Origin: a virus | Strand: one strand, 5' to 3' | Length of the DNA: 41,331 bases | IMG/VR virus record: IMGVR_UViG_3300045988_081349 | Location: 1 to 41,331 of that record | Part shown: in pieces, positions 4,562 through 41,331 of the stretch | How positions within the stretch are numbered: position 1 is the stretch's first letter | How the letters are laid out: each line of letters starts with the position of its first letter | Program-made: the position numbers and the translations under genes | Notes under the pieces: generated by a model | The model's input: only the letters and a program-made list of their open reading frames with translations | Told to the model about the DNA's origin: nothing | Databases searched by the model: none

Positions 4562-4768
4562 GTGAAGGTGACCAGATTTGATTTATTAAAGCAGTGTGAT
4601 ATTGAGCTTGCTTCTAAACTCATATATGCGCTGGGAAGAAAATTTGAGAAATCCGATGAGCTCAAGTTACATTTACTTGAATTCGTGACAGAACAAGAGC
4701 TGCAGCGAATAAACGATGCAGCCCATATGGAAGGATATCAGCCATTATCCTTTTCTTTTAAGCAATAA
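4562..4768 (+). CDS. Cassette copy A, rightward ORF (hypothetical; paralog of 16842-17042)
   Basis: A 68-aa ORF with RBS AAGGAGG. An alternative GTG start at 4568 would give MTRFDLLK, matching MTRFEALK of the paralog. The ORF overlaps the convergent ORF by 31 nt. Confidence 0.65.
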   Translation: MKVTRFDLLKQCDIELASKLIYALGRKFEKSDELKLHLLEFVTEQELQRINDAAHMEGYQPLSFSFKQ

Positions 4769-4971
4769 TAACATCCGTTGCCTTTTTTGGATGGACATAA
4801 CATTGCCGCAGCAATAAGACAGTTCATATAGGAATCATCCACCCATATATGTTCGTGTTTAATATCGTCGATATGACAAAAATCGGTTTCATTATCTAAA
4901 TCATGGATTTCGCCGGTGTTTGTGTTGAGAAGATATCGTTTTCCATTATAAGGCGATTTGTAACGACGCAT
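4738..4971 (-). CDS. Cassette copy A, leftward ORF (hypothetical H/C/CxxC zinc-motif protein; paralog of 17012-17242)
   Basis: The internal start MRRYKSPYNGKRY has RBS GGAAAGGAG, giving 77 aa. About half the residues are identical by eye to the 17012-17242 product. Conserved elements are GEIHDLDNE, C.ID.IK and NGCYYC. The longer ORF-track version (to 5238) runs through the promoter and is rejected. Confidence 0.7.
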   Translation of the reverse strand: MRRYKSPYNGKRYLLNTNTGEIHDLDNETDFCHIDDIKHEHIWVDDSYMNCLIAAAMLCPSKKGNGCYYCLKEKDNG

Positions 4972-5019
4972 AACATATTCTCCTTTCCTTGTATTTGGCG
5001 CTGCAACGCCTGTAAGTAC

Positions 5020-5048
5020 ATTATAGACAGGAGGGAAAAATAAAACAA
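5020..5048 (-). promoter_or_regulatory. Promoter of the leftward cassette ORF (copy A)
   Basis: On the minus strand: TTGTTT (5043-5048), a 17-nt spacer, then TATAAT (5020-5025). The same architecture occurs at 17290-17318. Confidence 0.6.
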
Positions 5049-5062
5049 GAGGAGGTGTAACA

Positions 5063-5290
5063 ATGGAATTTCCAAAGAAAATCATGTACCAGAAGGAATT
5101 AGTCCAGATGGGATTCCCGGAGAAAATGCTGCGCAGAATCAGCCATGAAAAAGGCCAAAAGGTAGCATATAAGGTCAATCCCAATAACCGTACAAGCCCA
5201 ACCTTGTTTGACACGGACGAGCTCCAGAAATATCTCATCCGTCAGAACCGGGCAGCCGATCTGGCAAGGCAAAGGGGGTGCGTGATGTAA
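5063..5290 (+). CDS. Small DNA-binding protein, possible excisionase/HTH_17-like
   Basis: A 75-aa ORF with RBS GAGGAGG. The pattern YQKELVQMGFPEKMLRRI...LFDTDELQKYL resembles excisionase-family HTH proteins. The call is weak. Confidence 0.4.
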   Translation: MEFPKKIMYQKELVQMGFPEKMLRRISHEKGQKVAYKVNPNNRTSPTLFDTDELQKYLIRQNRAADLARQRGCVM

Positions 5291-5505
5291 TGCACTACGC
5301 CACAATAAAAGACGCAGCCATATGCACTGCCATTGCTGCATCAACCGGATTCTGGCAACCCCGGGACGCACCGCAGGCAGTTATGTGTTACATATTTATA
5401 TTTGTGCTGCTGATGGTTGGATTTGAAGTAGCACGAGACCAAGGAAATAAGAGGAGGAAAAATCATGTACAAGGAAGAATTACAGGAAATATTAAAAAAG
5501 CATAA
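5290..5505 (+). CDS. Hypothetical small membrane protein
   Basis: The ATG overlaps the previous stop codon (TAATG). One hydrophobic helix is present ([15 protein letters not shown]). The ORF overlaps the next gene by 41 nt, so coding status is uncertain. Confidence 0.35.
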
Positions 5506-5893
5506 GAAATGGTTAGCCGGAGAAGATGGCGGTGTAAGAGCCGACCTGAGCGGAGCCGACCTGAGCGGAGCCGACCTGAGCGGAGCCGACCTGAGCGGAG
5601 CCGACCTGAGAGGAGCCGACCTGAGAAGAGCCGACCTGAGAGGAGCCGACCTGAGAAGAGCCGACCTGAGCGGAGCCGACCTGAGAGGAGCCGACCTGGA
5701 CTTTTCCTGCTGGCCATTGTGGTGTGGAGGTCTTGCGGTCAAGGTGTGCAAGCGTATTGCCGTGCAATTGGCATACCACTTTTGCAAGCTGGATTGTGAT
5801 GACCCAGAGTATATAGCGGCTCGTAATGCGATACTTGATTTTGCAAATCAGTTCCACCGCGTAGGTGAGTGCGGAAAACTAGAAAAAAGATAG
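5465..5893 (+). CDS. Pentapeptide-repeat protein (Qnr/MfpA-like fold class)
   Basis: A 142-aa ORF with RBS AGGAGG. About 11 consecutive ADL(S/R)(G/R) pentapeptides are present. The N-terminus [21 protein letters not shown] is typical of this family. Confidence 0.85.
5541..5700 (+). repeat. About 10.6 tandem copies of a 15-bp unit (CCGACCTGAGCGGAG and variants)
   Basis: The copies are near-perfect at the DNA level and in frame within the pentapeptide gene. All six frames are open across the repeat, which creates spurious ORFs. Confidence 0.95.
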
Positions 5894-15038: not shown

Positions 15039-15500
15039 TTGATAGACCTGAATGCCACTCAGGCCGCCATAAGAGCAGGATATAGCCCAGATACTGCACA
15101 GGAGCAAAGTTCGAGGCTGTTATCAAATGTTATGGTTAAAACGGCAGTTGATAAGGCAATGGCCGAGCGTAGCAAGCGTACTGGTATAAATCAGGATCGT
15201 GTGCTGCAGGAACTGGCTCGAATCGGATTCGCCCGGATAACAGATGTACTGGATCCTGCAACGGCAAAAATCAAGGAGGATGCATCTGACGATGATCTGG
15301 CCTGTATCCAGTCGGTCAAGATAAAGCCGAATGAGTGGGGCACGGAGAGGGAGGTAAAGCTGTGCGACAAAAAAGCGGCATTGGAGCTTATAGGTAGACA
15401 CCTGGGGATGTTTAAGGATAACCTAAGTATAAATGTTGAGACATCAGAAAAACTGGATGATATTCTGTCACAGATGGGCGGTGAAGGGCTTGAAGAGTAG
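15039..15500 (+). CDS. Terminase small subunit (Terminase_2 type)
   Basis: The product contains YLIDLNATQAAIRAGYSPDTAQEQSSRLL. The start is uncertain because family-like sequence continues upstream to 15003 (see findings). Confidence 0.85.
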   Translation: MIDLNATQAAIRAGYSPDTAQEQSSRLLSNVMVKTAVDKAMAERSKRTGINQDRVLQELARIGFARITDVLDPATAKIKEDASDDDLACIQSVKIKPNEWGTEREVKLCDKKAALELIGRHLGMFKDNLSINVETSEKLDDILSQMGGEGLEE

Positions 15501-16845
15501 CTTTCCTTTGTCGTGGAAGTATAAGGATTTTATCAACACTGTAGAAGGAGTGGACGCGGATTTTTTGGAAGGCACTACAGCTTCGGGGAAGACAACCGTG
15601 GGGGCAGGCGTAAAATTCATGCGAATGGTAAGCCGGAGCAACAAGAAACTCCACATCATTGCCTCAAAAACTACTGGTACTGCAGAGAAGAACATTATAC
15701 AGCAGGATAATGGGATTCTGGACATTCACCCCAAAGCCAGATATTACGGGAATGGAGACAAGGATTATAAGATTCCACATATCAAATTTGAGGGCAAGAT
15801 AATTTTCGTCCTGGGATACGACAACCGGGATAAATGGGAGCTGGTACTTGGTTCTCAGTTCGGCTGTGTGTACATAGATGAGATTAATACTGCCAATATA
15901 GATTTTGTCCGGGAGATATCTACCAGAAATGAATATCTGATGGCAACTCTCAACCCGGATGACCCGAATCTCCCAGTCTACAAAGAATTTATAAATCGGT
16001 CACGGCCATACAAAAAATATGCTGCGGATGTGCCGCAAGAAATAATAGATGAGTTAACAGAAGACCCAGTGCCAAAATGGAGGTACTGGTTTTTTACATT
16101 CAGGGACAATTTATCTTTAACGGAAGAGGATATCGAAAAGAAGATACGTTCCGCTCCGCCAGGGACAAAACTTTACAAGAACAAAATCCAGGGTCTGCGT
16201 GGTAAGGCGACTGGTCTGATATTCCCGAACTTCGACCGCAAGAAGCATGTAGTTACTGCTGCATGGCTAAAACAGCAGATTAAAGCCAGGAAGATAAAAT
16301 TCAAGAAGTTCACGGCTGGTCTGGATACATCCTACTCCAGCAAATCCCCGGACACTATCGCTATGATATTCCAGGGCATTACGGAGGACAGAATACTATA
16401 TACCCTTGCCGAGAAGACCTACAACAATGCTGACCTGGATGTGCCGCTGGCTCCCAGTGATACAGCTATCCGGTTCGTTGGTTTCCTAAGCCAGTGCAAG
16501 GACGAATGGGGGTTAGCACGAAATGTATTTGTGGATTGTGCGGATCAGGCAACTATCACTGAGTTACACAAATTTAAGCGTCTGTACGGATGCCTTTATA
16601 ATTTTGTGGACAGCTACAAAAGCGTTGTGATCATTGACCGCATCAATCTGCAATTGGGGTGGATACAGCAGGGCAGCTATTATGTGGTTGACACCTGCAT
16701 GGAGCATCTATCCGAACTGGAACGGTATAGCTGGGATGATGAGAAAGATGTGCCTGAGGACCGGAATGACCATACGATCAATGCTAACCAGTATGCATGG
16801 ATTCCGTACAGAGATATGATTGGATTCGAGGAGGCAGAAAGATGA
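15433..16845 (+). CDS. Terminase large subunit (PBSX-type)
   Basis: Walker A is GTTASGKTT and Walker B-like is CVYIDEIN. A C-terminal nuclease region is present. The true start is probably within 15457-15490. Confidence 0.9.
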   Translation: MLRHQKNWMIFCHRWAVKGLKSSFPLSWKYKDFINTVEGVDADFLEGTTASGKTTVGAGVKFMRMVSRSNKKLHIIASKTTGTAEKNIIQQDNGILDIHPKARYYGNGDKDYKIPHIKFEGKIIFVLGYDNRDKWELVLGSQFGCVYIDEINTANIDFVREISTRNEYLMATLNPDDPNLPVYKEFINRSRPYKKYAADVPQEIIDELTEDPVPKWRYWFFTFRDNLSLTEEDIEKKIRSAPPGTKLYKNKIQGLRGKATGLIFPNFDRKKHVVTAAWLKQQIKARKIKFKKFTAGLDTSYSSKSPDTIAMIFQGITEDRILYTLAEKTYNNADLDVPLAPSDTAIRFVGFLSQCKDEWGLARNVFVDCADQATITELHKFKRLYGCLYNFVDSYKSVVIIDRINLQLGWIQQGSYYVVDTCMEHLSELERYSWDDEKDVPEDRNDHTINANQYAWIPYRDMIGFEEAER

Positions 16846-17042
16846 CAAGATTTGAAGCACTTAAATCAGTTACAGGAGTAAGGGAGTTTTCAACTCTGAT
16901 TTGCGACATATTGAATGATAAAAAGAATGCAGACGATATTACGGAGTTTTTGGCAACAGAGTTATCAGAAGAACAGCTACAAACATTGAGGTCTGTAGCT
17001 GAATCCGGCAATTATCCATTGTCTTTAGATGGGTTGCAGTAA
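16842..17042 (+). CDS. Cassette copy B, rightward ORF (hypothetical; paralog of 4562-4768)
   Basis: The start MTRFEALK has RBS GAGGAGG and an ATGA overlap with the terminase stop, giving 66 aa. It overlaps the convergent ORF by 31 nt. Confidence 0.65.
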   Translation: MTRFEALKSVTGVREFSTLICDILNDKKNADDITEFLATELSEEQLQTLRSVAESGNYPLSLDGLQ

Positions 17043-17242
17043 TAACAACCATTTGCGCCCCTGACTGACAAAAAGGCCGCTCTTAGCGCGGCATCTTCAT
17101 AACTAGCGCAGTTTATTATGTTTTCAGGTTTGATTTCATCAATCTGACAATTGGGCATTTCATTGTCCAAATCATGAATTTCGCCGGTGGCTCTATTTAA
17201 GACATAGCGATTGCCATTAAAAGGCATTGTATATCTTCGCAT
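17012..17242 (-). CDS. Cassette copy B, leftward ORF (hypothetical H/C/CxxC zinc-motif protein; paralog of 4738-4971)
   Basis: A 76-aa ORF with RBS GGAAAGGAG. It is the only leftward gene within the late operon. Confidence 0.7.
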   Translation of the reverse strand: MRRYTMPFNGNRYVLNRATGEIHDLDNEMPNCQIDEIKPENIINCASYEDAALRAAFLSVRGANGCYYCNPSKDNG

Positions 17243-17289
17243 ATGATTTTCTCCTTTCCTTTGTACTCGGCATGCAGGCCTGTACTTTG

Positions 17290-17318
17290 ATTATAGGAGA
17301 TTTGCCATAAAATAACAA
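17290..17318 (-). promoter_or_regulatory. Promoter of the leftward cassette ORF (copy B)
   Basis: On the minus strand: TTGTTA (17313-17318), a 17-nt spacer, then TATAAT (17290-17295). Confidence 0.6.
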
Positions 17319-17332
17319 TAGGAGGCAAAGAA

Positions 17333-18946
17333 ATGAGGTGGGTACAAAAATTGAATGAAAGCATTAAGCGCGGCCTCAGAAGCTGGTTAAATGTAGTTCC
17401 TGCAAACCCGTACAGTATTCAGATAAATGAGGTATTGGACTTTGAGACCAATGCTATCCGTAACCGTATCTGGTACAGAGGTGATAGCAATGAGCTGGAG
17501 CAGATGTACCAGCAAAATCCAGAGTATGCGGATAAGTTTAAGTTTTGGGCCAGTAAATGTAGCCCTGGAATGGAAATGCGTAAAATCCATACCGGATTGC
17601 CGGGATTGATCGTACGTATATTGACCTCAGTCGTTTTGGCAGATATGAACGACTTTGAATTTGAGAATGCCAAACAGGAACAGCTCTGGAAAGAGATTGA
17701 GGAAGACAATAAATTTACAAAAAAGATGGAAAGGGCCCTGAAGGAAGTGTTATACATCGGGGACGGGGCTTTTAAAGTCACGATAGACACACAGGTAAGT
17801 GAGTATCCTATCCTGGAATGGTATCCGGGAGAACAGATAGAGATAGTCAGACGCCGGGACAGGATAAGTGAGGTGATATTTAAAACTCCTTACAAGGACC
17901 AAGGCAGGATGTATGTCCTCAATGAGCGCTATGGATACGGATACATCATCAATGAGTTGTACCTGCATGACAAGCTGGTTGATATCAAGTCAATCCCGGC
18001 TACAGCCAACCTGGCGGACTGGAAGTTTGATGAAAATATCATTCTAGCGGTGCCCCTGCAAATCTATGAATCAGCGAAATATGAAGGCCGGGGAGGCTCT
18101 ATTTTTGATGGAAAACTGGACAGCTTCGATGCATTTGACGAGGCATGGTCGCAGTGGATGGATGCACTCAGAGCCGGCAGGGCAAAAACTTATATCCCAG
18201 AATGTCTGGTGCCACACGATCCGGAGACAGGAAGGCTCATCAAGCCCAATATGTTTGACAACCGGTATTTTGCCGCAGACGGAGATATGCGTGACAAACA
18301 GCAAAATGTGATCAATACAGATCAGCCAATCATCCCCCATGAGAGTTATCTTGCAAGCTATGTCACAGCTCTGGATCTCTGCCTACAGGGGATTATCAGC
18401 CCCAGTACATTGGGTATTGACGTAAAAAAGCTGGACAATGCGGAAGCGCAGCGGGAAAAGGAGAAAGCCACTCTGTACACCAGGAACGCTATTGTGGAAG
18501 CACTACAGGAAACATTGCCTGATGTGGTGGCAACCTGCATCAATGCCTATCATGTGTTGATGAAAGAAACGATTGAGGATGTCAAGGTAAACATCCCATT
18601 TGGAGAGTACGCGAATCCGTCGTTTGAAAGCCAGGTGGAAACAGTTGGGAAAGCCAAAACACAGGGTATCATGAGTATTGAGCGCTGCGTTGAGGAGCTT
18701 TATGGTGACACACTGGATGAGCACTGCAAGCAGGAGGAGATAGCCCGGCTGAAAAAGGAACAAGGAATTGCCGAGGTGGAAGAACCGGGAATCAGGCAGG
18801 AAGCGGGAGGCTTCCAGATTGGAGGTTTGGATGAAGGTAAAAGTGGGGCCAAGAATATACCGGATGACCCGGAAGGAATACCAGGGGCTACTGGAGATGG
18901 CAAAGGAGCAGGTGCCAATGGGGATATACGCCCTGGAAAAGGCTGA
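17333..18946 (+). CDS. Portal protein (SPP1 gp6-like)
   Basis: A 537-aa ORF positioned after the terminase. It has a low-complexity Gly/Asp-rich C-terminal tail. Confidence 0.85.
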   Translation: MRWVQKLNESIKRGLRSWLNVVPANPYSIQINEVLDFETNAIRNRIWYRGDSNELEQMYQQNPEYADKFKFWASKCSPGMEMRKIHTGLPGLIVRILTSVVLADMNDFEFENAKQEQLWKEIEEDNKFTKKMERALKEVLYIGDGAFKVTIDTQVSEYPILEWYPGEQIEIVRRRDRISEVIFKTPYKDQGRMYVLNERYGYGYIINELYLHDKLVDIKSIPATANLADWKFDENIILAVPLQIYESAKYEGRGGSIFDGKLDSFDAFDEAWSQWMDALRAGRAKTYIPECLVPHDPETGRLIKPNMFDNRYFAADGDMRDKQQNVINTDQPIIPHESYLASYVTALDLCLQGIISPSTLGIDVKKLDNAEAQREKEKATLYTRNAIVEALQETLPDVVATCINAYHVLMKETIEDVKVNIPFGEYANPSFESQVETVGKAKTQGIMSIERCVEELYGDTLDEHCKQEEIARLKKEQGIAEVEEPGIRQEAGGFQIGGLDEGKSGAKNIPDDPEGIPGATGDGKGAGANGDIRPGKG

Positions 18947-32340: not shown

Positions 32341-32976
32341 ATGGCGATACAGGATAGGCGGGGCGATTTTGACCACTTTGACCCCCAGAAGATGCTGCCA
32401 GGGGAATGGGCAGTTGTACTGAGGGGAGACCCGAATGTGTGGGATGGGAAGGCAACGTATGTATGCTTTTCCGCCGGAGTTGTGAAACGCCTCATGACAG
32501 AGGAAGACCTGACCATAGAGTTAGACGAGCGGACACAGGAGATCATCAACAGGCTTGTCGGTGAGGTTGGGGCGGCTGTAAAAGATGCGGTGGAAGCAAC
32601 GAAATACGCTAACAATGCCGGACAGCTTGCCAATACACAAGCACAAGCAGCAGAGGCTGCCGCAAACCGGGCTAACGCTACTGCCGACGACTTGGAGCGG
32701 CGCAGACAGGCTGGGGAGTTCAATGGCCCGCAGGGGCCACAGGGTCCAATAGGTCCGACCGGCCCGGCAGGCCCGCAGGGACCGCAAGGTATCCAGGGAC
32801 CAAAAGGAGACAAGGGAGATAAAGGTGACCGGGGTGGGGATGCTGCAGTTGTAGAGAGCAAAGGTGTCTATGCCTTCCAGGTGCGGGGAGACGGACATCT
32901 TTATATAGTATACGCTGGCGCAGATGCCCCGGGATACAAAATAGATGATAATGGCCATCTGGTCATGATCTTATAA
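32341..32976 (+). CDS. Collagen-like repeat tail fibre protein 1
   Basis: A Gly-X-Y tract spans 32725-32835 ([37 protein letters not shown]). The C-terminus has the GDGHLYIVY motif. Confidence 0.75.
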   Translation: MAIQDRRGDFDHFDPQKMLPGEWAVVLRGDPNVWDGKATYVCFSAGVVKRLMTEEDLTIELDERTQEIINRLVGEVGAAVKDAVEATKYANNAGQLANTQAQAAEAAANRANATADDLERRRQAGEFNGPQGPQGPIGPTGPAGPQGPQGIQGPKGDKGDKGDRGGDAAVVESKGVYAFQVRGDGHLYIVYAGADAPGYKIDDNGHLVMIL

Positions 32977-32990
32977 GGAGGTAGAGAATT

Positions 32991-33869
32991 ATGCCCGAAC
33001 TTGATTTAGGCAATGTGATGGGACCGCAGGGGCCGAAGGGAGCTACAGGAGCGACCGGCCCTCAGGGTCCGGCAGGTCCAGCAGGCCCAACAGGTCCGCA
33101 AGGACCGAAGGGGGATAAAGGTGATGTAGGGGCCACAGGGCCGCAAGGGCCACAAGGGCCGACTGGCAAAGTGGATGCGTCTACCCCTATCGCGTTTTCA
33201 GACGCGACATCCAGGGAGACATTGGTCACGGAAAATTCCATAGCGGTGTTGATCGGAAAGATATCCAAGTGGCTAAAGGATATGAAGTATCTTGCATTTA
33301 ACCGCGTGATTGATTTAGAAAATAAGGTTACACCTGTTGATACGGATGCTTTTTTGGTGGAAGAGTTTTCAGGGACTGGTAAAAAGATGTTATTTTCAAA
33401 TCTCTTTACACATTTAAAAGAACAAATGACCACGTCGATATATCCAATCGGCAGTATATATATATCGGCGAATGCGACGAATCCTGAAGAACTTTTTGGG
33501 GGAACATGGGAGCTATTTTCTCCAGGTAGAACCCTTGTTTGTGTAGATACCAGCCAGACAGAATTCAATACGGCCGAGAAAATTGGTGGTAGTAAGGAAC
33601 TACAGTCTCATACACATAGTTTCAGCGCTACTACAGGGTCAGCAGGTGCACATACTCACAATCTAGACAGGATAGGCGCATTGACAAATGATTCAGATTC
33701 ACATAACCGATATTTTATGACGGGTACTTCAACATCAGGGAAAATACCCACTTCGTCTAGTGGTGCACATACACATAAGGTTTCAGGGACATCAAGAAGT
33801 TCAGGTACAGGAAATGCAAAGAATTTACAACCATATATTACATGCTATATATGGAAGCGGACAGCATAA
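32991..33869 (+). CDS. Collagen-like repeat tail fibre protein 2 with HTH-triad C-terminal domain
   Basis: A Gly-X-Y tract spans 33021-33167. The C-domain contains IGSIYIS..NP..LFGGTWE and repeated SHTHS / GAHTHN / GAHTHK motifs, typical of fibre tips. Confidence 0.75.
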
Positions 33870-35112: not shown

Positions 35113-35883
35113 ATGGCAAGAGAAATTGATTTAGGCAGTATTGTAGGACCGCAGGGGCCAAAAGGAGAGAAAGGGGAAACGGGAGCTCAGGGACCCGCAG
35201 GGCCAAAAGGAGAAAAAGGGGACCCGGGAGCAACTACAGCGGGAGGCGTAAGCTATAAGGACATAGATGTGGAAAAGGCGCTGGACGACTTAATAAAAAG
35301 AATGGATGATGTCCAGTATATAAAAATCCAGATATCCTCCTTTACGAACAATGTTAACACGGTGGAAATGGGAAGCACTGTGAACACGGTTGTATTAAGC
35401 TGGGCAACAAATAAGACGCCGAAAACCTTAACCCTGGACGGTGCAGCCTTAGATGTAAGCCTGAAAACAAAGACTATTGAAAATGCAAATATTAAAGCAA
35501 ACAAGACTTATACCCTGAAAGCTACAGATGACAGGGAAGCAGAAGCTACAAAGACATCATTAATCCAGTTTTTAAATGGTGTGTATTATGGTGCGGCGGC
35601 AAATGCATCTGCTTTTGATAGTGCTTTTGTTTTAAAACTCACCAAGGCATTGCAAAACAGCAAGGCAAAAACATTTACAGTAACGGCATCACCTGGGCAG
35701 CATATATATTATGCGATTCCTTCCAGATACGGCACACCAGCCTTTAAAGTAGGTGGCTTTGACGGAGGATTTACAAAGGCAGCAACTATTGACTTTACAA
35801 ATGCATCTGGCCATAAAGAATCCTATGATATCTGGAAATCTGACAATGCAGGGCTTGGCAATACCACAGTTGTAGTAGCGTAA
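35113..35883 (+). CDS. Collagen-like repeat tail fibre protein 3
   Basis: A Gly-X-Y tract spans 35146-35229, followed by a globular C-terminal domain. Confidence 0.7.
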   Translation: MAREIDLGSIVGPQGPKGEKGETGAQGPAGPKGEKGDPGATTAGGVSYKDIDVEKALDDLIKRMDDVQYIKIQISSFTNNVNTVEMGSTVNTVVLSWATNKTPKTLTLDGAALDVSLKTKTIENANIKANKTYTLKATDDREAEATKTSLIQFLNGVYYGAAANASAFDSAFVLKLTKALQNSKAKTFTVTASPGQHIYYAIPSRYGTPAFKVGGFDGGFTKAATIDFTNASGHKESYDIWKSDNAGLGNTTVVVA

Positions 35884-35895
35884 GGGAGGAAAGAC

Positions 35896-36933
35896 ATGGC
35901 AATTGAATTAATCTCAAAAATTAAACCCAAAAACAACGGGACATTTAAGTTGGTAGACGCAGAAGACATTGAATACAACGGAAAGAGCTTAGCGGAAGCG
36001 ATTGCCTCCGGAGAATTTAAAGGCGATAAAGGTGACAAAGGAGATACTGGCGCAGCAGGAGCAAAAGGCGAGACAGGTGCTCAGGGGCCACAGGGTAAAC
36101 AGGGCGAGACTGGCCCGACAGGTCCGAAAGGTGATACGGGTGCAACCGGAGCAAAAGGTGCGGACGGTACAACATGGCTGTTTGGCGCTGCAGCACCGAC
36201 AACACAGGGAAAAGACGGAGACTTTTATCTGAATTCAGCCAATTTTGATGTATATAAAAGGGCATCAGGAGCCTGGGCGAAGACAGGTAATATCAAAGGT
36301 GCGACTGGTGCACAGGGTCCGAAAGGAGATACCGGAGCAACAGGAGCACAGGGTCCGAAGGGAGACACCGGAGCGACCGGTGCTACAGGCCCAAAGGGGG
36401 CTACAGGTGCTACAGGCCCGCAGGGGCCTGCCGGTGAAGCTTTCACGATCGCAAAGACCTATGCCAGTATCAGTGCTATGAACAGCGGTTATGCTTCTGA
36501 CGGTGTGAAGGTTGGCCAGTTTGTTATGATCGACACCGGAAACGTCAATGATGCAGATAACGCGAAGCTGTATGTAAAAGGCTCATCGGCATACACCTAT
36601 ATCACAGACTTGTCCGGTGCAACTGGTATGACAGGACCCCAAGGAGTGAAAGGCGCAACTGGTGCTACAGGCCCGCAGGGAGCCACAGGGCCTAAAGGTG
36701 ACAAAGGAGACGCTTTCACTTATGCGGACTTTACATCTGCCCAGTTGGCTGCATTAAAAGGGGCTAAAGGTGATACTGGTGCAACTGGCCCGCAGGGGCC
36801 AAAAGGTGATACCGGTGCTGCCGGAGCAAATGGCGCCACGGGTGCTACAGGCCCGCAGGGACCTGCCGGTGCAGACGGCAAGACACCGACTTTTGAGATC
36901 CGGAGCGGACATCTGTATGCAATCTTTGAGTAA
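35896..36933 (+). CDS. Collagen-like repeat tail fibre protein 4
   Basis: The product has four Gly-X-Y tracts. The C-terminus reads [18 protein letters not shown]. Confidence 0.75.
36022..36879 (+). repeat. Four Gly-X-Y (collagen-like) coding repeat tracts
   Basis: The tracts lie at about 36022-36168, 36298-36435, 36616-36708 and 36760-36879. Tract 2 contains a duplicated [12 protein letters not shown] unit. The repeats create long stop-free shadows on the opposite strand. Confidence 0.85.
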
Positions 36934-38628: not shown

Positions 38629-38656
38629 TAATTAAGTTAATCTCTTAACTTAATTA
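38629..38656. repeat. 28-bp palindrome (12-bp perfect arms, 4-bp spacer)
   Basis: TAATTAAGTTAA-tctc-TTAACTTAATTA. It sits at the predicted transcription start of the leftward promoter at 38658-38686. Confidence 0.8.
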
Positions 38657-38657
38657 T

Positions 38658-38686
38658 ATTATAAACTATTTTTGGTTTAATGTCAA
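38658..38686 (-). promoter_or_regulatory. Leftward promoter P3 of the right-arm module
   Basis: The minus strand reads TTGACATTAAACCAAAAATAGTTTATAAT (-35 TTGACA, 17-nt spacer, -10 TATAAT). Confidence 0.6.
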
Positions 38687-38700
38687 GGCTTAAATTAAAC

Positions 38701-38919
38701 TTATTTTGGTTTATTTCCTTCCTCTACATATTTAATTATGTTCCCAGGTTGCATGTCCAGTAACTCACATAATTGTTCAAGTGTTTTAATTCCAACCATA
38801 TCCCCTTTTCTTAATTTTTGCATTGCGGACTGACTCAATATGTTTTCTTTTAATATACGCGTGCTGTTGTAGCCTGATTCTTTCAAGGCATCAATAACAT
38901 TGATTTTATAAACAAGCAT
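38701..38919 (-). CDS. Small Cro/C1-type HTH regulator (HTH_26-like)
   Basis: The 72-aa product reads YKINVIDALKESGYNSTRILKENILSQSAMQKLRKGDMVGIKTLEQLCELLDMQPGNII. The RBS is AGGAGG. Confidence 0.8.
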   Translation of the reverse strand: MLVYKINVIDALKESGYNSTRILKENILSQSAMQKLRKGDMVGIKTLEQLCELLDMQPGNIIKYVEEGNKPK

Positions 38920-38941
38920 ACAGAATACCTCCTTTTCTTAT

Positions 38942-38970
38942 ATTGTAAAACCATCTTGTTTTAATGTCAA
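38942..38970 (-). promoter_or_regulatory. Promoter P2 of the HTH gene
   Basis: The minus strand reads TTGACATTAAAACAAGATGGTTTTACAAT. Confidence 0.6.
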
Positions 38971-39001
38971 TAAAATAATCCAAAAAAAGTTTAAAAACCT
39001 A

Positions 39002-39030
39002 TTGACATTAAACCATATTTGGTTTATAAT
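39002..39030 (+). promoter_or_regulatory. Rightward promoter P1 of the right-arm operon
   Basis: TTGACATTAAACCATATTTGGTTTATAAT. The spacer holds the inverted repeat AAACCA/TGGTTT. Confidence 0.65.
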
Positions 39031-39063
39031 GAAATCAAGATAAAGAACAGGAGGAAAACAAAG

Positions 39064-41284: not shown

Positions 41285-41331
41285 TGACTTTTAATCAAGT
41301 TGTCCGGGGTTCGAATCCCCGATGCTTCACT
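41285..41331. repeat. attR core: second copy of the 47-bp repeat (displaced 3' tRNA-Lys fragment)
   Basis: The copy is identical to 1-47. The upstream flank lacks a GAAGCAT acceptor strand, and identity breaks exactly inside the anticodon stem (CA instead of the CT needed to pair with TCAAG). Confidence 0.9.

Follow-up and report, generated by a model that had tools for sequence, protein, structure and literature searches.

Between the genes for the terminase large subunit (TerL) and the portal protein of IMG/VR virus record IMGVR_UViG_3300045988_081349, a stretch of 41,331 nucleotides (nt) that was analysed at its full length and is referred to below as the window, lies a compact cassette of two small convergent open reading frames (ORFs). 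One of these, R, is read in the direction of the late operon, and the other, L, opposes it and has a predicted promoter of its own. The prophage represented by the window carries two diverged pairs of this kind, one in the early operon (copy A) and one in the late operon (copy B). Several kinds of comparison across related prophages indicate that the cassette is an insertable, mobile accessory unit, that is, a moron, and we suggest that it might combine a defence function of the resident prophage with the cognate antidote. The parts of copy B and its flanks are as follows (SD, Shine-Dalgarno sequence; positions are those of the window).

15433 to 16845, plus strand: TerL, the left flank of the insertion site, matching PHROG terminase large subunits; stop codon TGA at 16843-16845.
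16828 to 16834, plus strand: SD GAGGAGG for R-B; the same sequence serves the portal gene in relatives with an empty junction.
16842 to 17042, plus strand: R-B, 66 amino acids, with its ATG at 16842-16844 overlapping the TerL stop (ATGA).
17012 to 17242, minus strand: L-B, 76 amino acids, an antisense ORF of family phrog_28292.
17012 to 17042: the 31-nt overlap of the 3' ends of the convergent ORFs R-B and L-B.
17001 to 16974, minus strand: L-sense hairpin inside R-B, followed by a T-rich tail at 16973-16964, found as a scan match.
17243 to 17285, minus strand: leader of L-B, with a 5' stem-loop, a GAGUAC motif and a strong SD.
About 17285 to 17263, minus strand: stem-loop of the L-B leader, with the core GGC-CUGCAU-GCC at 17280-17269.
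About 17258 to 17250, minus strand: the strong SD of L-B.
17318 to 17313 (-35) and 17295 to 17290 (-10), minus strand: predicted sigma-70-type promoter of L-B, TTGTTA-17-TATAAT.
17320 to 17325, plus strand: cassette-borne portal SD AGGAGG, recognised by comparing empty and occupied junctions.
17333 to 18946, plus strand: portal protein, the right flank of the insertion site (phrog_533, E = 2e-102).

This arrangement agrees with the preliminary description of the window, in which R was said to begin within an ATGA shared with the terminase stop codon, L to face the late operon from a TTGTTA-17-TATAAT promoter at 17290-17318, and the ribosome-binding site and start of the portal gene to follow directly after that promoter; all of these coordinates hold, with the portal ATG at 17333. 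Through the ATGA overlap, R-B is translationally coupled to the upstream TerL gene. The name copy B, already used for the TerL-portal cassette in that description, proved apt, given that a copy A is present at 4568-5055, with the following parts.

4568 to 4768, plus strand: R-A, the early-region paralogue of R-B, with a GTG start at 4568 or, alternatively, a start at 4562.
4738 to 4971, minus strand: L-A, 77 amino acids, family phrog_28292, overlapping R-A by 31 nt.
4699 to 4722, minus strand: L-sense terminator hairpin GCUGCA...UGCAGC, inside R-A.
4972 to 5055, minus strand: the platform of copy A, consisting of an SD, a leader hairpin (core 5010-4997) and the promoter TTGTTT-17-TATAAT at 5048-5020 (TATAAT at 5025-5020, TTGTTT at 5048-5043).
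5049 to 5055, plus strand: GAGGAGG, which serves the gene at 5063-5290 downstream of copy A.

The DNA similarity between the two copies spans the region from the SD of R through the SD of the next plus-strand gene. L-A and L-B are 56% identical (E = 4e-28); BLASTP finds no alignment between R-A and R-B, whose homology is recognisable only in the alignment of the family (31% identity). Just past copy A, the ORF at 5465-5893 consists mostly of pentapeptide repeats, with eleven 15-nt tandem units at 5508-5732; pentapeptide-repeat proteins can mimic DNA.

The mobility of the cassette is best seen at the TerL-portal junction, which we surveyed in the 80 closest portal relatives in IMG/VR. At 60 of the 80 loci the junction is empty, with the TerL stop and the portal start overlapping or at most 23 nt apart, and at nine it is occupied by the L/R cassette (490-501 nt). 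One further locus (L149) contains the same promoter-leader platform with two different ORFs, and the other occupants are a 73-amino-acid ORF (four loci), a homing endonuclease with NUMOD4 and HNH_3 domains (two loci), a deleted remnant of that endonuclease (two loci) and a 31-amino-acid membrane peptide (one locus); at one locus the state is undetermined. The endonuclease, of 181 amino acids, sits at the same ATGA junction (L187:2947-3492 and L210:2400-2945; remnants in L216 and L217). The TerL-portal junction hence appears as an insertion hotspot common to morons and homing endonucleases. At the empty site, the sequence reads GAGGAGGCnGAGAA-ATGA-GGTGG, with the portal start overlapping the TerL stop, whereas at the occupied site the ATGA starts R, and the portal signals are restored by a cassette-borne AGGAGGCAAAGAA-ATGA. 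Presence or absence of the cassette (60 empty versus 9 occupied of 80), its exchange between genomes as described below and the replacement SD together bear out the earlier proposals that this junction is normally tight, that what interrupts it is accessory or selfish, including HNH homing endonucleases in other phages, and that the cassette behaves as a unit capable of insertion, bringing with it translation signals for the gene downstream.

Exchange is evident in both directions. Identity to the studied prophage is 96-100% up to both cassette edges and 60-67% inside in one case (L143, Blautia producta L100); the reverse, a cassette 98-100% identical within more diverged flanks, is seen in L141, L146 and L147. 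These alignments show that the cassette has been swapped between near-identical flanks. In L141, L143 and L146, in addition, the N-terminal half of TerL, from 15433 to about 16200, is only 60-67% identical or unalignable, and the C-terminal half of TerL, the cassette and the portal gene are 80-100% identical, which indicates a second mosaic breakpoint within TerL, near 16200. Overall, the cassette occurs in ~60 different flanking-gene contexts, including an unrelated TerL/portal pair from other PHROG families (L032), a portal/minor-head junction (L087) and positions among Ant/Rha genes, for example in phage RG-TP1. An 18-bp target-site duplication flanking copy B (AGGAGGCA...ATGA on both sides) was considered and dropped, because copy A and L172 repeat only the SD core, like two ordinary ribosome-binding sites.

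The L gene appears to constitute a complete transcription unit. Taken alone, the 10/12 match of the L-B promoter is not above chance, the scan that picks it up finding three promoter-like sites in 1.8 kb versus 4.3 expected from shuffles. The promoter is credible because its position is conserved across relatives: among 61 distinct family members, 46 have the -10 box of their best -35/-10 match ending 43-52 nt ahead of the ATG of L, where about seven such cases would be expected by chance. All family members share the leader anatomy TATAAT-N5-TACAGG-stem-YUGCCA loop-stem-GAGUAC-N5-GAAAGGAG-N8-AUG. Within a set of 24 same-geometry sequences chosen by eye, 96.5% of the cells of the leader hairpin are paired, compared with 66% in shuffles (0/500), and double changes occur at 5/5 pairs; in 38 of 55 cases the antisense fold has a slight edge in stability. 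Rfam returned noise only for the cassette, with no family for the leader.

At the other end of the unit, a hairpin located 10-20 nt beyond the stop codon of L, and within the coding sequence of R, is present in nearly every locus. RNAalifold predicts 11 pairs, ten of them with compensatory changes; 91.8% of the cells are paired versus 71.9% in shuffles (0/500) and 31-52% in slid controls. On the L-sense strand there are 77 G-U wobbles and eight A-C, which indicates that this hairpin is selected in that sense, and a T-rich tail (at least five T in 9 nt) follows it in the L sense in 32 of 51 sequences, versus three of 51 in the R sense. Thus, in copy B, the hairpin at 17001-16974 and its tail probably act on the L mRNA as an intrinsic terminator or by stabilising its 3' end. 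Given this conserved hairpin and tail, the L transcript would mostly end ~120 nt short of TerL and is probably confined to the cassette, while the operon transcript can still read through. The suggestion, made from the single sequence, that a constitutive antisense promoter fires into the terminase gene is not upheld by this covarying terminator inside R. A predicted promoter and a predicted terminator flanking the L ORF are, at the sequence level, what the definition of a moron would lead one to expect.

With respect to its product, L belongs to phrog_28292, a family without an assigned function (E = 1e-40 for L-B). In a collection of 5.8 billion proteins L forms 59 clusters, all of ~76 amino acids and all from Lachnospiraceae or gut metagenomes, and an exhaustive profile search expands the superfamily to 478 representative clusters, in many of which the domain is found at the C-terminus of larger, heterogeneous proteins. 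Across 79 members (mean column identity 23%), no position is invariant other than H23, C32, C66 and C69; this H-C-C-C pattern therefore points to a metal site and indicates that L is a small zinc-binding domain. The AlphaFold2 model of L-B has a mean predicted local distance difference test score (pLDDT) of 89, and its best fold matches in PDB, identified with Foldseek, are to the Ada N-terminal zinc domain (1zgw/1u8b), at a weak level (probability 0.63-0.75, template modelling [TM] score 0.46). Ada_Zn_binding (PF02805) is also the sole Pfam family that recurs among distant relatives of L, where it remains below threshold (five of the 79 superfamily members; best E = 3.7e-4). L itself yields no Pfam match at E <= 1 and does not reach the gathering score of PF02805, and a profile search against PDB sequences produced noise only. 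Like L, the Ada N-domain (PF02805; 1zgw, 1u8b) has four conserved metal ligands, including a C-terminal CxxC, but these are C-C-C-C instead of H-C-C-C. Weak as they are, these likenesses could mean that L is a distant Ada-N-like zinc module; we see no evidence for enzymatic activity, and methyl-transfer chemistry is not expected. An assignment of L as an HNH-like nuclease was rejected for want of fold support, and the domain fusions of distant relatives (HD, transglutaminase, DUF5675, baseplate J) were dropped as a guide to function, being too heterogeneous. In tblastn searches with L and R, the only match among 50,697 phage records was Ruminococcus phage RG-TP1, in which the L homologue (L001, PQ571303.1, 3971-4228) is labelled '3-hydroxyacyl-CoA dehydrogenase', almost certainly a mis-annotation of a 76-amino-acid zinc-domain protein; megablast of the TerL-portal region against the phage records gave no match. 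The convergent partner in RG-TP1, gp48 (151 amino acids), carries the R domain at its C-terminus.

The R family comprises 138 clusters, none of them named, and one R homologue alone is encountered in 830 blocks of the sequence collection. From its AlphaFold2 model (pLDDT 82), R-B is predicted to be a four-helix protein with a flexible tail that bears an invariant Pro-Leu at the C-terminus; the fold has no PDB match. R diverges faster than L (mean identity 39% versus 62%). Outside the overlap, the ratio of nonsynonymous to synonymous polymorphism (pN/pS), taken from unsaturated comparisons, is ~0.15 for L and ~0.20 for R. By this measure both are conserved genes under purifying selection, so that the preliminary description, which treated the ORFs mainly as carriers of signals, needs revision: the layout suggests a function at the protein level.

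The two proteins also behave as a linked pair. From 139 fetched loci we obtained 63 distinct L/R pairs, in which the partners are always convergent in prophages and overlap by exactly 31 nt in most cases and by 24, 25, 27 or 34 nt in a few. The identities of L and R correlate (r = 0.69), and their types match, La-type L always occurring with Ra-type R, and Lb-type with Rb-type. The hosts of the cassette-bearing prophages are Lachnospiraceae (Blautia, Mediterraneibacter, Coprococcus, Lacrimispora and others). L without R is found only outside prophages, adjoining degV in Mediterraneibacter chromosomes (L102-L132; metagenome-assembled genomes mostly from chicken gut), where it is preceded by a strong TTGACC-17-TATAAT promoter and accompanied by variable neighbours (VanY, GNAT, CAT or BlaR1-like). 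Conversely, R without L is represented in one prophage lineage (L224-L226), which contains no L-superfamily ORF in any frame; this orphan R (L224:3001-3273, 90 amino acids), encoded in the prophage early region, has a C-terminal extension where L normally overlaps. Each protein occurs alone and, therefore, neither would require the other for host viability.

The promoter-leader-SD platform is not restricted to L. At the copy A site, it is kept in seven of seven close relatives of the downstream gene, only one of which has L/R. The alternative cargo at this site (L230-L236) consists of a 115-amino-acid, C-terminally membrane-anchored protein, a 70-amino-acid protein and a 92-amino-acid protein, some of them in tandem, and the 115-amino-acid cargo is accompanied by its own convergent, 3'-overlapping membrane ORF of 50 amino acids. 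A 60-amino-acid protein is among the other platform cargo of the group formed by L230-L236 and L149:942-1415, and L231, on the same contig as L035/L142, combines L/R at the late site with other cargo at the early one. When all fetched sequence was scanned for the motif, the platform was detected ahead of ~30 non-L ORF families, on the same strand as for L in 24 and on the opposite strand in five. In L098, the cargo at 2123 (plus strand) is a 187-amino-acid Abi_alpha abortive-infection protein (Pfam E = 7e-30; PADLOC candidate PDC-S47, E = 4e-33) that adjoins an L/R cassette at 1503-1942; further cargo includes DUF2513, DUF6883 and YozE-like proteins.

Taken together, these observations lead us to propose, with a probability of about 0.5, that the cassette is a moron in which L is a zinc-protein defence effector made in lysogeny and R is the cognate antidote made in the lytic phase. 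The proposal draws on the analogy with two characterised prophage systems, Tab/anti-Tab of Pseudomonas and TERi of Listeria, with which the cassette is compared below, and includes the suggestion that Lachnospiraceae phages reuse the platform for other defence-type cargo. Under this scheme, L would be an autonomous unit set against the lytic operon and would be made from the silent prophage, its transcript being kept within the cassette, whereas R would be read in the operon direction and, because it is translationally coupled to an upstream lytic gene (TerL), would be made only in the lytic phase. We infer that in the lysogen L would block some step in the development of a superinfecting phage. 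Upon induction, L could be neutralised in two ways: the R protein would bind its cognate L, and convergent transcription of the operon across L would generate antisense RNA and polymerase collisions, resulting in less L. The orphan forms of L and R fit this division into defence and antidote.

Several observations weigh against this proposal. Searches of L-A, L-B, R-A and R-B against Pfam, NCBIfam and PADLOC returned nothing usable, that is, neither protein matches a defence family known to these resources, and hhalign detects no homology to the Pseudomonas pair (probability 0.04% between L and Tab, and 0.08% between R and anti-Tab). The zinc domain of L could equally belong to a regulator that binds DNA or RNA and acts on host or phage genes, a reading that the layout of the cassette fits just as well. 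The co-divergence of L and R could be a mere effect of physical linkage, and the orphan R comes from a single lineage (three contigs). Finally, the terminator has an interrupted T-tract (UUCUUCUG) and may therefore be leaky.

More tentatively, the defence proposal can be extended to a plug-and-play antisense platform that temperate phages of Lachnospiraceae would share, with exchangeable cargo. Its parts would be a sigma-70 promoter, a structured leader whose loop is of the CUGCCA type and a strong SD, and its place would be at gene junctions in the early and late operons. In such an arrangement, L/R would be but one cargo, an unrecognised zinc-dependent effector with a fast-evolving helical antidote, and the leader hairpin might be a regulatory RNA, recognised, for instance, at the lysis-lysogeny switch, beyond merely stabilising the mRNA.

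Among the competing explanations, the one that holds up best, although we regard it as unlikely, is that defence is not the primary role and that the cassette is a lysogenic-conversion or regulatory moron, with L as a zinc-dependent nucleic-acid-binding regulator and R as a lytic-phase anti-regulator. L might then serve as an extra repressor that acts on lytic promoters, or modulate host genes, and R might be comparable to an anti-repressor. The best fold match of L is, after all, the DNA-binding Ada N-terminal zinc domain, with sub-threshold Ada_Zn_binding hits in distant relatives, and the cassette resides among Ant/Rha anti-repressor genes in many phages. Nevertheless, the Ada match itself is weak (probability 0.75, TM 0.46), the chromosomal L orphans adjoining degV have no obvious phage target, and the presence of the Abi_alpha gene and of membrane proteins behind the same platform elsewhere suggests a defence hotspot.

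It is improbable that the cassette is primarily an RNA-level device in which the antisense promoter and convergent transcription insulate or modulate the lytic operon (terminase, portal), with the ORFs being secondary, an idea that goes back to the preliminary description. Admittedly, the position of the promoter is conserved, the operon mRNA must cross ~310 nt complementary to the L mRNA, and antisense silencing between terI and its complementary gene has been reported in Listeria (10.1101/2025.02.27.640495). However, the strong conservation of L, with its four invariant metal ligands and low pN/pS, is at odds with a secondary role for this ORF, the conserved L-sense terminator keeps the transcript short of TerL, and the platform also drives protein cargoes that are unrelated. 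Effects at the RNA level probably form an accessory layer of the system, not its main point.

A toxin-antitoxin (TA) or addiction module that stabilises the prophage or the cassette, either type I-like, through overlapping RNAs, or type II-like, through protein binding, seems distinctly improbable. Small convergent pairs with overlapping 3' ends are indeed reminiscent of the type I TA loci of Firmicutes prophages, and L and R are strictly linked and co-diverging. The wiring of R into lytic operons, which would leave it silent in the lysogen, is nonetheless incompatible with a standing antitoxin; moreover, L alone in chromosomes and R alone in a prophage argue that neither is lethal without its partner, and there is neither a hydrophobic peptide typical of type I systems nor a TA family match in Pfam, NCBIfam or PADLOC.

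That the cassette is a selfish homing element, one product of which cuts cassette-less junctions in the manner of freestanding HNH or GIY-YIG endonucleases, is very unlikely: notwithstanding its sporadic presence at a conserved gene junction, the bona fide NUMOD4 and HNH_3 endonuclease at that junction in other relatives and the mosaic breakpoints that coincide with the cassette edges, neither L nor R shows a nuclease motif or fold (HNH, GIY-YIG, LAGLIDADG or similar), both fall, at 76 and 66 amino acids, below the size of known homing endonucleases, the dozens of unrelated target contexts argue against a site-specific nuclease, and an antisense gene with its own promoter would be unusual for this class.

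Beyond the cassette, the window as a whole is a complete prophage, with an exact 47-bp direct repeat at either end (1-47 and 41285-41331). The repeats include the tRNA T-arm-like sequence GGGGTTCGAATCCCC and are probably the attL/attR core of a prophage inserted into the 3' end of a tRNA or tmRNA gene; a search with ARAGORN detects no complete tRNA within the window. Several late ORFs (32341-33869 and 35113-36933) contain extensive collagen-like Gly-X-Y repeats with a 9-nt periodicity and presumably encode tail-fibre proteins. A cluster of AT-rich repeats, both direct and inverted, at 38645-39043, close to the right end of the prophage, surrounds a divergent intergenic region and may be regulatory; it has 42-nt arms that are 81% complementary and a 33-nt direct repeat.

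L and R are a concrete candidate for a new defence/counter-defence pair in gut commensals. Experimentally proven pairs of a prophage defence gene and its self-antidote are recent (Tab/anti-Tab 2024, TERi 2025) and come from Pseudomonas and Listeria only; the same wiring is seen here in prophages of the abundant human-gut Lachnospiraceae, built from two unannotated protein families. The platform, together with the signature of an operon-coupled ORF plus a convergent antisense ORF, provides a search handle for small defence genes that domain-based tools miss. The cassette is also an example of genomic compaction, with a putative intrinsic terminator within a coding sequence, an SD that has been transplanted and a dual-coding overlap fixed at 31 nt.

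Classical morons, as defined in HK97 and HK022 (e.g., HK97 gp15), are usually single genes that are co-oriented with the operon. The cassette shares with them the organisation as an autonomous promoter-ORF-terminator unit between genes that are adjacent in related phages but differs in that it is antisense, always comes with a second, operon-sense gene, has its terminator embedded in that gene and supplies a replacement SD. The type I TA loci of Bacillus prophages (bsrG/SR4, txpA/RatA) produce convergent transcripts that overlap at their 3' ends. Convergent units with overlapping 3' ends, and the attendant possibility of RNA-RNA control, are likewise present in the cassette, in which, however, both partners are conserved soluble proteins, each is found alone, and R lacks a promoter of its own.

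A closer parallel is offered by Tab/anti-Tab of Pseudomonas phage JBD26 (JN811560), where the genes are ordered gp29 TerS (terminase small subunit), gp30 atab, gp31 tab and gp32 TerL; atab, on the plus strand, overlaps TerS by 1 bp, and tab, on the minus strand, encodes 83 amino acids and has its own promoter (Patel et al., Nat Commun 2024, PMC10884400). In the JN811560 record, tab and atab are convergent with a 47-nt 3' overlap. The logic of this system is proven: constitutive defence by the prophage, an antidote from the late operon that binds the defence protein, and lethality of the defence gene without the antidote (PMC10884400). The layout, set among the packaging genes of the late operon, is nearly identical to that of the cassette, namely an operon-sense gene that overlaps the upstream terminase stop, a convergent antisense gene with its own promoter and then the next late gene. 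The differences lie in the site (TerS/TerL versus TerL/portal), in the length of the overlap (47 versus 31 nt) and in the protein itself, Tab having no Cys/His metal site comparable to the invariant H-C-C-C of L.

The second parallel is terI of Listeria prophage phi10403S, a 65-amino-acid antisense gene inside the early lytic module that is constitutively transcribed, in lysogeny from a sigma-A promoter, and inhibits DNA packaging (Azulay et al., bioRxiv 10.1101/2025.02.27.640495). The overlapping gene on the opposite strand encodes one member of a pair of proteins that confer self-immunity (anti-TerI1/anti-TerI2), with antisense silencing contributing as well, and 96% of comK prophages retain the terI promoter, the alternating cargo genes there being anti-phage as well (10.1101/2025.02.27.640495). 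Judging from the description of TERi, two of its features recur here: a small antisense ORF within a lytic module that overlaps a gene on the opposite strand (by 31 nt in both copies here), and a conserved promoter region with alternating unrelated cargo, seen at both the early and the late site. TERi differs in its use of two immunity proteins and in that the target of TerI is the terminase; tblastn of L (E <= 1e-3) and R (E <= 1) against Listeria phage records gave no match. Thus, as part of the even-odds proposal advanced above, the L/R cassette may work like Tab/anti-Tab and TERi, with both the effector and the antidote drawn from apparently unrelated, uncharacterised protein families.

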